From a bacterium (GTDB lineage: Bacteria > RBG-13-61-14 > DATKZS01), in assembly GCA_963674965.2 (NCBI GenBank), contig CAXXFL010000006.1, positions 736,001 to 800,000 on the forward strand: 64,000 nt of DNA. Reading direction: 5' to 3'. The position numbers and the translations under genes were made by a program. This document shows, piece by piece, positions 12,616-27,775 of this stretch. Under the pieces are notes generated by a model, which saw nothing but the letters and a program-made list of their open reading frames with translations, did no database searches and was not told the origin of the DNA. The first letter of the stretch is position 1, and each line of letters opens with the position of its first letter.

Positions 12616-15600
12616 TTAATATTCTAACATCAATGAGTTTATTGCGTTTGGATCCGCTTCATTCATTCTTTTCCAATTTTGTAATTCTCTATTCAATTCA
12701 CTTACATTGTCAAGTTTATAATTAGAGATATAGTTGGTATTATAACGATTTCCTTCCAATGTGTATGCAGCATCGGGATGAACCCTCTTGCCATTAAGTG
12801 CATTCACTTTATTTCCGGCGGCATCAAATTGACGCTTGTTTTTATTAATGTTCGTAGCTCCTTTCGATTCTGCCCAGTTTAATTCATTTTCGATCGCATT
12901 ATTATGTTTTACGTTGCCAGGACCATGTTCTTTGCCCCATTTTGTGCCACTTACAGAGGATTTATCCGCCGCTTTTACCGCGTCATCGCCAACTTCCTCC
13001 GCGGCCTCCAATACGGCCTTGCCCGCGCCCTCGGCCGCGTCGTCGGCCGACCCTTTTAATAATCCTTTTACTCCGTTTATTGATCCCTTGACTCCATTAT
13101 AAAACCCTCGAGGGTTTTTTGCGATCTTATAGCCGGTGGCGGTAAAACTTAAGCCGGCGCAAACGTCCCCTGGGATATTGACGACGTCCCAAGCATCTCG
13201 TATTCCATTGTAAGCGTCATCAGCCGCTGCTTCAGAAGGAATCGCTCCAACTCCATCCAGACCTCCTACTATAGCGAGAGGAACTCCAACTCCAATACCG
13301 CCGGCGGCGTAAATTATCAAAGCCGCCATTGCCATAGGATCGCGACCATCGCCGTCCTGATAGACGAATGGATTATTATTCGCGTATGCGTATTGATTGA
13401 GATCCTGGAAAACCGGATCGGTGCTCACGAACCGCCCCAGGTCCGGGTCGTACCAGCGGGCGCCGAGTTGGTAGAGGCCGACGTCGTTGTCGGAGCGGCG
13501 GCCGACGAAGCCGTGGGTGATGGAGGAGTTGGCGATGGTGAGGGGGTGGGAGGGCGAGCCGGAGAAGTCGGCGCCGAAGGGGAGATAGGCGCGGCGCCAG
13601 ACGGTCTCGCCGTCGGAGTTGGTGGCGACCACCGGGGAGTGGAGCCCGTAATGGAGGTAGAGCCGCTGGGAGATATTGACCGAGGCGGCGCCCGAGTCGA
13701 GGAGGCTCGAGCCCGAGTCGTCAACCACGTCAATGTCGTATGAGCCGGAGCCGGCGTCGTCCCCGAGGTCGCCCGTGTCTATAAAAATATAAGTCGCGCC
13801 CTCGGACACGGCCACCTCGATGGCGTAAACCGCGCCCGACCCATTATCGAACCGCACCGTGTACGTCCCCGCGTCCAGCGCCCCCGCCACGGACAGCTTG
13901 AGAGTGTCGCCCTCCTCGAGCTCGTCGGACCAGGTATCGCCGTCGCCGAGGGTCAGCTCGCCGATGGCGCTCTCGGCCAGGAGCCGTAGCCGCGCCGCGT
14001 CCAGCTCGGGCGTCGCCGAGTCGCCCTCCCCCGGCCCGCAAAGCTGGGTCGCTCCGTCCATGACGGAGGTCACGCCGTCGCACAGCCCGTCGCCGTCGGT
14101 GTCCGGATTGAATGGGTTGGTATAGAAATACCCCGAGTTCAGGTATTCCTCGAGATTGGTCCTCCCGTCCCCGTCGGGGTCATCGGCCGCGTCGTCCACC
14201 AGCGGGTCCAGCCCGGCGATGACCTCCCAATAATCGTCGATCCCGTCCCCATCCGAGTCGGCCAACAGCGGGTTGGTCCCCAGCCTCGCCTCGATAATGG
14301 CCGCCATCCCGTCCCCGTCATAATCCGCCACCGCCGTATCGCACTCCACCACCACCGGATCGAACCCAAGGCTATCCGCGTACTCCACCTCCCACCCGTC
14401 CGTGAAGCCGTCAAAGTCGGAATCAATGGAGACGGGGTTGGCTTGGGATTGGCAGTAGGCATAATTCAACGGTTCGCTAACAGTAACGTCTGGATCGCAC
14501 TCATCAACGTTCACGATACCGTCAGAATCCGTATCGACCGTTCCTCCATCAGCGTCGGATATTGGGTTAAGGCCGTGTTCATACTCCCACTTGTCAGGCA
14601 TGTCGTCCAAGTCGCTGTCGCCCGTATATGGGCAGGAATCCAGAACGTAATATTCCATGCCGTCGGGGAGACCGTCGTCGTCGCTGTCAGATAAGGTTGG
14701 AATTACAATAATGCCCTCATACATTTGAGCGTCAACTTCTTCCGAATCGAGCATGTAATCCTCATCAGTGTCGGGATTGTATGGAGACGAGAGAAAAACA
14801 ATTATTTCAGTTTGATTGGAAATTCCGTCGCCATCGGGGTCATCGTTATTGTCCACCACCAATGGATCAGTCCCGTATTCCACCTCAATTCCGTCTCGTA
14901 AGCCATCGCCGTCAGTGTCGGGATTTTCCAGTCCATTTGGAATAGTGCCCATCTGATATTCAGTAAGGTTCCATAAGCCGTCGCCATCGGCGTCGGAGTC
15001 CCAGTCCGTGGAGTCGTCCGGGTCAAAACTATATTGGACCTCCCACCAGTCAGGCATGCCGTCCATGTCGGAGTCGACCATGTCTGGCCTTGTGTTATAT
15101 ATATCGTGTTCGTCAATATTGCATAACCCGTCCTGGTCGAGGTCCGGACAACCGGCGCCGCCGGCGCCGTCGGCGGCATTATTGGGGTCGAGTCCGAATA
15201 ATGCCTCGTAGTCGTCATCCATGCCGTCGCCGTCGGTGTCGGCCAAGCTCAGTGAGGACCCCGCGTACATTTCCTCGATTACCATGAGGGTGGAGCCGAA
15301 TAATTCGCCCACGTCCAATTTCGAGTAGAACACGTAATAATTATCCGACGGGTCCTTTTCCACCCAGGCCACGTGCAGGTATTCCTTGTCGGGGCTGGGC
15401 TTGATCCTGGCCAGGACGGCGTCGTTAGCGGGGTTGGATATAAGTATGGGAGGTCTCCAGTGGGTCGAGTTGGTAGGCGCGTCCTTATAATAATCGTTCC
15501 TTACCATTTCGTTCGAGTAAAGGATTACCGATTTGGTCTGGCCCGAGCCCACGGGCGTCTCGACCACGGACTTCCATACCGCGTGTTTCCTCTCCCCGCT

Positions 15601-26200: not shown

Positions 26201-27775
26201 CATGGCGCTGAATACGTCTCGACGTGAGCCATAGTTTTTATCCGTTTCGACCCTGGTTGAGAGAGAGTACCACAAGTCTAACGGCGGAGTGCGCTCCCAT
26301 GGTCCGTCTTCATCCTCGTTCCACATCCATGGAGTTTCTCCATGATCGACTTGAGGATTATAATCGATGGCGGTATAGGAGTAAAATATATCCGTGCCCC
26401 ATGGGGTAATGATATGGCTAATGTAGTCTCCCGGACAGGTTAACGTGTAGTAAAATGGTTTTTCGGCTTGACGCGCGCAATTAACCCTTTCCGGGTCCGC
26501 GCCAGGGTCGATATCGCACGTGCAAAGTCCCGTGTCTCCTATTCCCAGGAAAGTATGCGACTCAAAATGCCAAAAGTCGGTGACGTCTTGGGAGTCGAGG
26601 GCGTCGGAAAGATCGTCTAATTCAATGGGCGCGGTATTGCCGGTTATTATGAAGGAATCCACCAGTTGATAGTCATTGGGGCCATAGAATTCACATGTAT
26701 AACCGTTCGTAACGTGTGAACGATAAAACTCCTCGGGAACTTCATGGTAATGGTAGTGCCGGCTGTATAAATATTCCTCGCCACGCCGAACGTCAAGTCT
26801 TTCAAGCTTCCCAGCGGGACGATCCGTCCTATATCTCGAATCGGCCGCGCTCCAGTCGGCGATCTGCGTCGTCATGTCCGAGTAAATGAAATCGACCGTG
26901 TAGACGCCCGTTTTTCCCGTCATAGTCACTTTTACAGGCTTTCCCCAATGACCATAGGTGCTTACTGAATTCGAATACTCTATCGTCACATGAGAACCGT
27001 TGGGGTAATCGACCTCGGTCAAAGCCAGATCGCGGCCTGAATAATTGTATCCCCAATGAAAAGAGTCCCATGTATTCTCATATGTCTTCCGAGTGCCGTC
27101 GGGAAGGAAAAGCGTGGCCTCCACGTGGCGAAATGGGCCTTCTTCTTCTATGCCTTTTGCAAGCGCCTCGAGCCTCCAGTTATTGTCGGAAAAATATAAT
27201 TCATGCCTGGCGTACATGTCAGGAAATGGGTACGGATCCGCCGAATTGTATACCTCCCAGTAATTGCCCCTCCAGGAACATCCAGTGCCAACGCAAGAAC
27301 TGAAATAGTGAATTTCACCGTCCTGGGTATATAAATACGCCTGAAACAATAAATCGTTCGTTTGGTCAATGAAGTCTACTCCGGTATACACGAATACGAT
27401 ATGTTCATTAAGAACGTCCCACGCCAAGCCATATGGAGATGGAGAGTGTTTGCTGGTGTAATTCAAATACAGCTCCAAGCCGACGCGGTCCTGAAAAGCC
27501 AAATAGTCCGACCTTCTGAATATGGAAAACCCGTACCCTCCATCCGACCCGACGGTAACGTCGGCCATAACGAAAATCGGGACGGCCGTCAGGGTGTCTA
27601 TGTATTCAAAACCGGATGGACTGTAATAATTTCGATAGGGAGAAATATAATTCAGTTGTAACTCCGCGGCGTCCGGCTTCATGGTCCCAGCCCCCATGGC
27701 CGTTACGCTCGGAATAAACAGTAACGCCAGCGCCGCCGTCAAGATAACCTTTACATTTACACGCTTCAATTTCAT
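23258..27775 (-). CDS. Secreted YD/RHS-repeat shell protein (1505 aa) lacking the Rhs-associated core and toxin
   Basis: Sec-type signal peptide; YD repeats (YDNFGRLTSI, LDGWGRVWK, YDAKGNV, YDDADRVTRI, FDRRGNRTS, YDSLNRLSSV); ends RKLYVYANGQMVAQF. Confidence 0.9.
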   Translation of the reverse strand: MKLKRVNVKVILTAALALLFIPSVTAMGAGTMKPDAAELQLNYISPYRNYYSPSGFEYIDTLTAVPIFVMADVTVGSDGGYGFSIFRRSDYLAFQDRVGLELYLNYTSKHSPSPYGLAWDVLNEHIVFVYTGVDFIDQTNDLLFQAYLYTQDGEIHYFSSCVGTGCSWRGNYWEVYNSADPYPFPDMYARHELYFSDNNWRLEALAKGIEEEGPFRHVEATLFLPDGTRKTYENTWDSFHWGYNYSGRDLALTEVDYPNGSHVTIEYSNSVSTYGHWGKPVKVTMTGKTGVYTVDFIYSDMTTQIADWSAADSRYRTDRPAGKLERLDVRRGEEYLYSRHYHYHEVPEEFYRSHVTNGYTCEFYGPNDYQLVDSFIITGNTAPIELDDLSDALDSQDVTDFWHFESHTFLGIGDTGLCTCDIDPGADPERVNCARQAEKPFYYTLTCPGDYISHIITPWGTDIFYSYTAIDYNPQVDHGETPWMWNEDEDGPWERTPPLDLWYSLSTRVETDKNYGSRRDVFSAMTKVESGDQAGTLQTTIEIDKFIGPHMYRCFGQYDPSGGTDISSHFYSLKKEYYYYDTSSITENGTVWRLYLPKALHLSGVRDDESSFSLGDVEYGWTGLPSPFLLGLRKFGGVTFQPFYTPYNRYENGISQTFIDPIPTVPAISSVEMTRDGLTYLMEASDFNMYNSPGKVESSMGGYARTSEYAFDHEAQVNGDTYMIGVTTNVDTSLNGGSGNVGAYRTNMTNGLLEASVVDMSALSLEYDDGGNVTNAAGDGGVQNTYTNYIMGRPQNVSLYNGALTGTMEYNGLGQATKVEVPNAGGSLLTYNYVYDNFGRLTSIDRPGSLWDTEISYLGGTSTTDGPDGGNDLNLYYVTNKRKSVTGNRESVEYLDGWGRVWKTETLYEGATYIKSVLKRDVCGVPRLSWSPLTTDFTDEQFVETSATASALDAFGRPAFSTDQTGGSEKFGRYVTYDYGSVGSGLEVEITVGCKGESDFCTAAAYTTTYKETYQGPSPGELYMTKRVGPIVDGSTATPREFQYTYGSKGELLSISEESSAGIGDREFKYDAKGNVIGTYSPESGRRRFTRDNRGRITKIRASDNSVVNMEYDDADRVTRILAVGPAQPDYHFYYDQGSGSLTGEDGNWAVEGVSYDTDYYYNALAPLLDKVSVAYGFPTSSGYSTAGFDIKYVYNGYGEVTWIDYDGEMSISLTRDNLGRVTSISKQGADDIMESIEYQPDGSLKRLTYGNDVVTDIFQFYGLGVITEISIRTKAEAVNRDNIKTDIVTIGGGGYASYWYERYGHYNGNDYCFDNYLNPLKAKIGPYGVNNKFQISATYDEEQRLSEAQYFPGSTLSSPFLRVTYDFDRRGNRTSKNLTWDPGSSESYSYNYDSLNRLSSVTGTEGPTIGDYVHDSRGNVIQTPTHKYGFDLFDRLVDADDGKVKIFYTAGGAKFLKVTEEEVTAYFYDPGGSMLCEKTFRHSDFRLISRKLYVYANGQMVAQF

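Follow-up and report, generated by a model that had tools for sequence, protein, structure and literature searches.

A probable two-chain Rhs polymorphic toxin with its YD-repeat shell and its core-plus-toxin on separate exported proteins

Introduction

Can an Rhs cocoon be assembled from one exported protein that supplies nearly the whole shell and a second that brings the plug and the toxin? The question is raised by a 64,000-nucleotide (nt) stretch of a bacterial genome (GTDB lineage Bacteria; RBG-13-61-14; DATKZS01; GenBank assembly GCA_963674965.2, contig CAXXFL010000006.1, positions 736,001 to 800,000), hereafter the window. Three consecutive minus-strand genes there encode a YD-repeat shell of 1505 amino acids (aa), a HEAT-repeat lipoprotein, and a giant lipoprotein of 3255 aa (the giant). 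In the Rhs, Tc, and teneurin proteins studied so far, the toxin chain builds much or all of the cocoon, and because it does, toxin entry is hard to separate from shell folding. Here, one protein makes up nearly the whole shell and a second holds the plug and toxin, and both would cross the inner membrane unfolded before meeting. We consider it likely that the locus encodes a two-chain Rhs polymorphic toxin, in which a Sec-exported YD shell receives the plug and toxin carried at the C-terminus of the 3255-aa lipoprotein. If so, cocoon loading, plug insertion, and autoproteolysis could be studied in a system that is naturally made of two components; the locus would also present a new mount for an Rhs toxin, on a giant lipoprotein stalk, and a means of swapping toxins through orphan cassettes with no change to the shell gene.

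Shell and core on separate proteins

The shell, HEAT, and giant genes follow one another with intergenic gaps of 32 and 23 nt, and a Shine-Dalgarno-like sequence precedes each (GGGAGG, GAGGA, and AAGGAG; Table 1). The shell matches the RHS/YD repeat families PF05593 and TIGR01643, has no TIGR03696 core in Pfam and NCBIfam searches, and reads ...RKLYVYANGQMVAQF (also given as ...YVYANGQMVAQF) up to its stop codon. Its signal peptide is kept in the paralogues. The giant has no RHS/YD repeat match at E ≤ 0.01, yet TIGR03696 (Rhs_assc_core) matches its residues 2933-3013 with 63.1 bits against a cut-off of 32.5. Core-type sequence begins at residue 2906 (window 13668), ~9.6 kb from the shell stop, with the HEAT gene and ~2900 codons of the giant lying between. 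The arrangement that defines one-chain Rhs proteins, shell and core on the same polypeptide, is thus absent from this locus. Among the window open reading frames (ORFs) scanned there was no match to VgrG, PAAR, TcA, or TpsB, and the window holds no type VI secretion system (T6SS) genes; elsewhere in the genome, TssC is encoded on contig C7 and a single PAAR at C6:931879.

An earlier note on this DNA, made from the letters alone, had described this layout: a shell without its own core and a giant without a YD shell yet with a core near residue 2905, on separate proteins ~9.6 kb apart, the giant with its own ribosome-binding site and lipobox and the shell with a Sec signal, and no VgrG, PAAR, TcA, or two-partner secretion genes in the window. 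Translations, upstream sequence, family searches, and ORF scans agree with that description in every point checked. Two sequencing runs made from a single sample yield contigs that are identical to the window at 19135-22452 and 23468-27793. The shell stop is not spanned by any listed run contig, and the short-read contigs break in parts common to the paralogues. No RNA run that carries the locus was among those listed.

From end to end, the giant comprises a lipobox, an N-terminal domain, a TSP3 stalk, a central domain, further TSP3 repeats, a beta-sandwich, the Rhs core, and the toxin. It starts with MKLSIMKAAALSIICLLAVVIVGC followed by G, the cut being placed before that G; a lipoprotein relative from another organism (P0071, described below) has LAAC where the giant has its lipobox. 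Language-model features from an atlas place the N-terminal region at 0.86-0.89 to Big_5/PD40 clusters, which we treat as a lead. The stalk matches TSP3_bac (PF18884, 1.4e-15) and is interrupted by a non-repeat domain at residues ~1990-2330. The models for CglD (NF033765) and MtsD (NF047639) score 311 bits (cut-off 400) and 129.7 bits (cut-off 800), both below their equivalog cut-offs. Over residues ~1301-1900 (window 16500-18500), the giant is 97-100% identical in protein sequence to its paralogue on contig C2, with flanks at 55-75%, which looks like recent gene conversion between paralogues. The pre-core domain is conserved in the orphan cassettes and in P0071.

A canonical Rhs core is described as having an Arg, two Asp, and a PxxxxDPxGL-type cleavage motif (PMC8765631, PMC9935623). 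The giant carries this set as R2976, D2989, D3010, and the motif PFVYQDGDGR, in which the P and L of DPxGL are replaced. Among 25 cores of the genome, none departs from R2976 or D3010, and at least 90% have D2989. Alignment of the giant with the mosquito protein SGS1 (8fjp), whose cleavage site is given as 2733|2734 (PMC9935623), puts the predicted self-cleavage site at R3014|D3015. This predicted cut coincides exactly with the point where the cassettes of the locus begin to diverge.

A separate observation concerns canonical Rhs cores outside the window, where the sequence after the D-x-x-G motif resembles the N-terminus of a mature type IV pilin (C6:847553-847795, C6:476329-476562, C6:479852-480091, C6:850229-850462, C1:685326-685565, and C1:689359-689598; for example, ...DPSGM FTLFELAIVIVIG... 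and ...DFSGF FTLMELLIAVVIIII...). Autoproteolysis at such sites would expose an F-T-L-x-E-L hydrophobic helix without a prepilin peptidase. A transmembrane-like stretch follows soon after the core in 13 of the 31 core-bearing frames of the genome.

Fold of the shell

An AlphaFold2 (AF2) model of shell residues 306-1505 had a mean predicted local distance difference test (pLDDT) score of 58, with values of 70-90 from residue ~665 on. All of the top 40 Foldseek matches were Rhs, Tc, teneurin, or SGS1 shells, so the model has the YD shell (beta-spiral cocoon) fold. The best match by E-value was 8qja (3e-27), 4o9x had a query template-modelling score (TMq) of 0.49, and the bacterial teneurin-like 9ifo came sixth. 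Searching Protein Data Bank (PDB) sequences with the shell (P0001) by phmmer gave no match at E ≤ 0.01.

The highest template-modelling (TM) scores, 0.46-0.51, went to TcdB2-TccC3, and a cocoon spread over two chains recalls TcB/TcC. Both points could speak for a Tc-like ABC toxin with the giant as its A component, a reading that we rate as the least probable of those considered here. The shell has no Pfam match to SpvB, TcdB_toxin_midN, or a beta-propeller at E ≤ 0.01, the giant has no TcA-type domains in Pfam and NCBIfam searches, and both proteins bear Sec-type signals, one of them being lipidated. A search with PF03538 (VRP1) found no match in this genome, but neither did it in any of 14 control genomes, and it therefore carries no information on a TcA partner.

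Conservation within the genome

The genome has 32 core matches and contains the shell-HEAT-giant trio three times (59-73% protein identity from one trio to another), so the split arrangement is not chance. Shell paralogues are 59-70% identical and all end at the same residue; giant paralogues are 64-73% identical. Two of the shell ORFs are intact (1505 and 1568 aa, 59-62% identical). Nonsynonymous (dN) and synonymous (dS) divergence over the whole shell, 0.30 and 1.73, give a dN/dS of ~0.18, indicative of purifying selection. Conservation peaks in the last 105 residues, where 50-residue windows are 86-100% identical, most other windows reaching 26-78% (residues 1051-1100 reach 90%). For these last 105 codons, dN is 0.043-0.058 and dS 0.46-0.58; because synonymous divergence is still present, the conserved shell end points to selection and not only to recent conversion. 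On the other side of the split, giant residues 2701-3000 are 83-95% identical among the paralogues. The C2 shell gene is interrupted by an IS3-like insertion sequence (IS) element of ~1.3 kb with a 338-aa ORF (C2:65285-66709; locus L004 ~3250-4675), the size of the IS3-family transposase at window 39340-40356.

The HEAT gene occupies the same place in all three loci, at 70-72% identity (dN 0.17-0.18, dS 0.64-0.66), and its product matches HEAT_2 (PF13646, 4.6e-9). Its long reading frame spans 22407..23348 on the minus strand, and translation most likely begins at M42 (MKKTT..., window 23225), the Met with which both paralogues open. Their use of this internal Met also led us to reject a programmed link between the shell ORF and the long HEAT frame that overlaps it. 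The HEAT lipoprotein may act as a tether, a chaperone, or a cap.

Beside the trios, the genome encodes an Rhs protein of 2900 aa that combines YD repeats and a core in one chain (C6:849626-858328), just downstream of a 7101-aa ORF (C6:824495-845800). Because this protein coexists with the trios, the genome keeps both canonical and split Rhs systems. A third core family forms arrays on C4 and at C2:10-14 kb.

Relatives in other organisms

An exhaustive phmmer search with shell residues 306-1505 against 1.84 billion representative proteins gave eight at E ≤ 1e-30, the window's own protein (P0005) included. The sole strong full-length relatives outside the genome are P0244 (1356 aa), P0245 (1626 aa), and P0246 (1304 aa), at 29-34% identity. 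All three match the window shell up to their own last residue, ending in ...YANGRLVAQY, ...VNGRIVAQF, and ...YANGQVVAQF, respectively, with the common pattern (A/V)NG(Q/R)xVAQ(F/Y). The shell type is rare: apart from this genome, about six records had it among all the representatives searched.

Three related fragments on short contigs, P0249, P0250, and P0303 (E 5.6e-11), differ in that the shell continues without a stop into a core and toxin. The core starts 9-14 residues after the shell end and runs from GFVGR... through ...GRF.S.DP...LNQYAYA.NNPF.YQD..G, and the toxin follows. These fused cores are 69-72% identical to the giant core, compared with 45-55% for the best other Rhs cores checked. 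Because the closest shell relatives are fused to the closest core relatives, the shell and core families belong together; the fused proteins link the two families and do not count against the split. A tree of the final 380 residues of the shell included six core-less and two fused shells (P0249 and P0250; P0303 was too short), and both kinds form one clade (100/100). Inside the clade they intermix at low support, which is compatible with more than one number or direction of splits and fusions.

A counterpart of the giant also exists elsewhere. P0071, the 2767-aa lipoprotein introduced above, is homologous to it from residue 1 (30% identity over 1-907; the giant N-terminal non-repeat region is 30% identical to P0071 residues 1-905). 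It runs through TSP3 repeats and the pre-core beta-sandwich to the core hairpin ...AAIVWRRAYEPFG (also ...VNAAIVWRRAYEPFGAQLDGALLNTGH), which is the end of the record, and a YD shell is absent from it. Both halves thus exist as such in other organisms, since core-less shells (P0244-P0246) and a giant (P0071) are each found there. By comparison, RHS repeats are present in 67 of 69 large proteins that have a related core; the two that lack them are the paralogue in this genome and a protein for which no domain is recorded. Many distant core relatives carry PF03534 or PF12256.

Other searches were less productive. Word-based shell searches gave only own-genome paralogues above 27% identity, and those with giant residues 2640-3030 were dominated by TSP3-repeat proteins. 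The shell family was found in none of 40 other genomes (P0001 query) and in none of 12 other genomes of the phylum (alignment A3); one phylum genome (G007) gave only a weak generic YD match. On genome contigs, A3 gave 28 pattern matches and P0244 alone gave 11, with no relative among either; on metagenome contigs, A3 gave 97 pattern matches and again no relative. An alignment of the giant N-terminus (A8) matched one metagenome locus (L031), in an 893-aa ORF that is not a giant.

These comparisons bear on a simpler account of the locus, namely, decay. An ancestral one-chain Rhs protein could have been broken by rearrangement, leaving the shell as a remnant and the giant core as a recombination scar. 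IS elements and recombining cassettes abound in the region, and the C2 shell copy is visibly disrupted. Even so, decay is very improbable and is largely refuted by the conservation data: two shell ORFs are intact with low dN/dS, three foreign homologues share the same end, and the Sec signal and Shine-Dalgarno sequence are conserved. Recent breakage was one of the outcomes that the earlier note had named as fatal to its idea, and the shared end residue in the paralogues and foreign homologues, along with the dN/dS value, speaks against it. The split is instead old and maintained.

Fit of the two pieces

If the two proteins complete one fold, their ends should be neighbours on a canonical Rhs protein. 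We locally aligned the last 260 shell residues and giant residues 2881-3030 onto 53 canonical Rhs proteins. In 7 of these, the offset between the projected shell end and giant residue 2906 lies between -12 and +4 residues (e.g., 3071|3072 in P0180 and 3038|3042 in P0176). The remaining 46 all gave positive, out-of-register offsets, because there the shell piece was aligned to earlier repeats. On RhsP (8h8a), the shell profile ends at ~1050 and giant residue 2906 maps to ~1043. The alignments thus suggest that the two pieces are neighbours in the fold, lying end to end on canonical Rhs.

Co-folding, which the earlier note had named as one way to check its proposal, gave a confident interface. 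Shell residues 630-1505 and giant residues 2897-3019 were folded together from separate alignments in three runs, and the median interaction prediction score from aligned errors (ipSAE) was 0.79, compared with 0.00 for the best control. Of 80 solved complexes, 58 reached the mark used, as did 2 of 110 mismatched pairs. At least 86% of contacts are shared between the runs, and the partner pLDDT is at least 69. The shell's last strand pairs with the first core strand of the giant, exactly at the split: shell residues 1500-1505 touch giant 2908-2910, and 1503-1504 touch 2908-2909. The docking hairpins lie on shell residues 1250-1304, and the core lines residues 1318-1460. When an unrelated protein replaced the shell, the pLDDT of the giant segment was 25. 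The co-fold therefore supports, at the level of a model, binding between shell and core. With the conserved truncation point, it upholds the central claim of the earlier note that a shell and a core-plus-toxin on separate exported proteins belong together.

It might still be that the proteins work independently, the giant core being a self-sufficient release protease and the shell an adhesin or a holder of other cargo. The C2 giant is intact despite its IS-interrupted shell gene, and the link between shell and giant comes from prediction and sequence. We judge independence improbable nonetheless. The trio order is kept in three paralogous loci, the closest relatives of the two proteins are fused, and models of the core segment that lack the shell stay at low confidence (pLDDT 25-40). 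In addition, the core region is described as lying inside the cocoon in all solved Rhs proteins (PMC8765631).

The fate of the toxin itself is a further question, given that the co-fold shows docking of the core only. As in teneurins, whose C-terminal toxin-like domain is described as lying outside the shell (PMC8765631), the giant core could plug the separate shell and leave the toxin outside, released or tethered, with the shell serving as a scaffold or receptor-binding head. It is difficult to see how ~240 residues would be loaded into a finished shell once both proteins are exported, and the shell fold search also matched teneurins and 9ifo. Against this, the autoprotease Arg and both Asp are kept here, whereas teneurin is reported to lack the last Asp (PMC9935623); the hydrophobic start of the toxin resembles SGS1 helices that are described as shielded inside the shell (PMC9935623); and the two-chain TcB-TcC cocoon can hold a toxin (PMC8765631). 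We consider an external toxin unlikely, although it deserves somewhat more weight than independent function.

Toxin region, immunity genes, and orphan cassettes

The toxin region opens with a Gly-rich hydrophobic stretch (residues 3017-3042; Kyte-Doolittle 2.15 over 19 residues). It has no Pfam match, and its language-model features in the atlas are at 0.89-0.90 to Tox-REase clusters, again a lead. Beyond residue 3000, the giant paralogues are 7-29% identical, compared with 83-95% just before. The 145-aa gene that follows the giant has no family match, and the usual toxin-immunity order makes it a candidate immunity gene.

Four orphan cassettes lie farther downstream in the window and a fifth just outside it, each with a TIGR03696 core and a different C-terminus. 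No Shine-Dalgarno sequence or ribosome-binding site precedes the two orphans whose upstream sequence was read, orphan 1 among them. The part that orphans share with the giant starts at residues 2666-2828, in the TSP3/pre-core region, and ends at ~3013-3015. Because of these limits, the recombining constant region appears to be stalk, pre-core, and core, not the YD repeats as in ordinary Rhs loci. With a hypervariable C-terminus, orphan cassettes, and genes of immunity-type families (Imm11-like, DUF4304, and SUFU) between them, all recognized by sequence, this is a polymorphic-toxin locus.

Table 1. Coordinates of the two-chain candidate, its parts, and the neighbouring cassettes in the window.
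Feature	Position	Strand	Basis or remark
YD-repeat shell without core, 1505 aa	23258..27775	-	Sec signal peptide (signal peptidase I type); ORF, family searches, AF2/Foldseek
Shell last 105 codons (residues 1401-1505), predicted docking edge	23261..23575	-	Most conserved part among three paralogues
HEAT-repeat lipoprotein, 271 aa from M42	22407..23225	-	Lipobox ASTGC, long low-complexity tether, HEAT repeats
Giant lipoprotein, 3255 aa	12616..22383	-	ORF translation, Pfam/NCBIfam
Giant lipoprotein signal peptide (...LAVVIVGC, then GAS)	22312..22383	-	Translation; conserved in both paralogues
Giant N-terminal non-repeat region (residues ~25-880)	19744..22311	-	Possibly immunoglobulin-like plus PD40 beta-propeller
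TSP3 stalk, Asp-rich, DxDxDG-type (residues ~881-2790)	14014..19743	-	Boundaries read from translation
Pre-core domain, predicted beta-sandwich (residues ~2790-2905)	13669..14016	-	AF2 beta strands, pLDDT 55-72
Docking hairpins and Rhs core (residues 2906-3014)	13342..13668	-	TIGR03696, SGS1 alignment, co-fold contacts
Variable C-terminal toxin region (residues 3015-3255)	12619..13341	-	Possible restriction-endonuclease-fold nuclease at end
Candidate immunity gene, 145 aa	12156..12593	-	Position 22 nt after giant stop
Orphan cassette 1: pre-core, Rhs core, different toxin	10607..12025	-	TIGR03696 1.1e-18; 93% identical to giant 2817-3015
Immunity-like gene after orphan 1	9933..10598	-	Weak Imm11 match (E 0.0011, below cut-off)
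Orphan cassette 2: TSP3, pre-core, Rhs core, toxin	8138..9799	-	TSP3_bac and TIGR03696; 93% identical to giant 2678-3013
DUF4304 gene after orphan 2	7295..7909	-	PF14137 1.3e-18; putative immunity role from position
Orphan cassette 3: TSP3, core, toxin	3768..5516	-	Followed by Imm11-like gene 3132..3755
Orphan cassette 4: TSP3, core, toxin	1300..3024	-	Followed by SUFU-family gene 737..1303
Paralogous trios	Window; C6:881384-896813; C2:63536-80060		C2 trio followed by nine orphans

Neighbouring features of the window

Two IS110-family transposase genes (384 aa, identical Pfam match scores) lie at 5718-6872 (+) and 52023-53177 (-), one of them within the orphan cassette array. Farther from the trio, giant ORFs of 2840 and 3315 aa (28987-37509 and 53174-63121, both minus strand) have FG-GAP, MG2, and InhA-like MAM matches and no Rhs core. 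Between these two lies a tandem duplicate of a three-gene cassette (41740-45317 and 45414-48880) whose products (366, 279-280, and 487-525 aa) match no family; its GC content is 42-47%, and IS3 and IS110 copies flank it. An ankyrin-repeat protein (Ank_2 5e-47) is encoded upstream of the 3315-aa ORF at 63160-63978 (-).

Proposed mechanism

In the two-chain reading, both proteins would be exported by Sec and the giant lipidated. Giant residues 2906-3014 would add onto the last strand of the shell and spiral into it, in the manner of cores that belong to one-chain Rhs proteins. Next, the core would plug the shell and cut after R3014, and the TSP3 stalk would carry the cut toxin at its tip, inside the shell or against it, until a target is met. 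The toxin would act on neighbouring cells, with the small downstream gene protecting the producer. Orphan cassettes could allow the toxin to be swapped by recombination in the TSP3/pre-core/core constant region while the shell gene is left untouched. We infer assembly in the cell, cleavage, enclosure, surface exposure, and the delivery route from anatomy, conservation, and the predicted interface.

More tentatively, and short of calling it probable, we propose that the cocoon is loaded in trans after export. A separate shell would close onto a core-toxin cartridge borne on a Ca2+-stiffened stalk, giving contact-dependent display without a T6SS, a Tc channel, or two-partner secretion. One shell could serve many cartridges, and the HEAT lipoprotein could be an assembly factor or a tether.

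Several points weigh against the two-chain reading. Linkage of the shell and giant genes comes from one genome. Folded alone by AF2, the giant C-terminus has a mean pLDDT of 40.7, with 30-40 in the core segment, and shell residues 306-600 fold with low confidence in the single-chain model. The 48-aa hairpin segment of the giant (2906-2953) is missing from the fused relatives and so is not essential to the family. The co-fold reaches giant residue 3019 only, leaving out the toxin, so enclosure of the toxin is not covered. Likeness to solved structures of one-chain Rhs, TcB-TcC, and teneurin proteins may account for part of the co-fold result, and halves of a split fold tend to pass such a test. 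Downstream of the interrupted C2 shell, the HEAT gene, giant, and nine orphans are intact; the C2 giant either persists without its own shell or borrows a paralogous one, and borrowing is conceivable since the last 105 shell residues are so nearly identical. Finally, the reading calls for a route by which a 3255-aa lipoprotein would reach the cell surface.

Comparison with known systems

In the full-text literature (supplements lying outside the scope), we found neither an Rhs core on a TSP3 lipoprotein nor a core-less shell gene beyond the Tc toxins. TcB-TcC (TcdB2-TccC3, 4o9x) is the nearest known system: it likewise builds one cocoon from two chains, and its toxin chain also carries the aspartyl-autoprotease core, as described in PMC8765631. 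In the present pair, the two-chain cocoon is seen in prediction only. TcC keeps several hundred residues of Rhs repeats (matched chains 664-970), whereas the giant adds only ~2 hairpins and the core. TcB includes a propeller and is the chain that binds TcA, and neither Tc chain is known to be lipidated; the window shell has no match to the TcB-type N-terminal region or propeller. The earlier note had drawn this same comparison, citing the repeats kept by TcC and the lack of lipidation, and it is apt.

One-chain Rhs proteins of the T6SS (RhsA 7q97, RhsP 8h8a, Tse5 8cp6, and Salmonella bongori Rhs 8qjb-d) have the same YD fold, a TIGR03696 core with PxxxxD-x-x-G, a polymorphic C-terminal toxin, an immunity gene, and orphan cassettes. 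In those systems, however, shell and core form one cytoplasmic polypeptide that is loaded on VgrG/PAAR, whereas the proteins here have signal peptides and no T6SS gene in the window. The orphans of this locus share TSP3/pre-core sequence with the giant, unlike the YD-repeat sharing in one-chain Rhs loci. SGS1 is the best PDB sequence match of the giant core (E 2.7e-11), and the match runs on into the hydrophobic post-cleavage stretch, which in SGS1 is described as shielded inside the shell (PMC9935623). According to the same source, SGS1 is a single 3364-aa chain with its own shell, unlike the split pair.

On the lipoprotein side, the myxobacterial CglD and MtsD have long TSP3 runs like those of the giant. 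The likeness lies in the repeats only, with scores far below the cut-offs, and the family models include no Rhs core or toxin, unlike the giant. SitA-type lipoprotein toxins are delivered by outer-membrane exchange with TraA/TraB, and the giant likewise bears a lipobox. In the MafA/MafB system of Neisseria, a conserved lipoprotein gene just upstream of a polymorphic toxin is described as a proposed surface holder (Zhang et al. 2012, PMC3482391); these families are unrelated to the trio, and the system as described there involves no Rhs cocoon.

A further comparison is with the bacterial teneurin-like proteins (TLPs, 9ifo), described in 2026 as Sec-exported lipoprotein (signal peptidase II type) YD-shell toxins with no obvious delivery machine (PMC13018210). 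Like the present locus with its candidate immunity gene, TLPs combine the YD fold and the core with a polymorphic C-terminus and a neighbouring immunity gene (PMC13018210). As described there, a TLP holds anchor, YD shell, and toxin in a single chain; the window has no such chain, its lipidated protein being without a shell and its shell protein without a lipid anchor.

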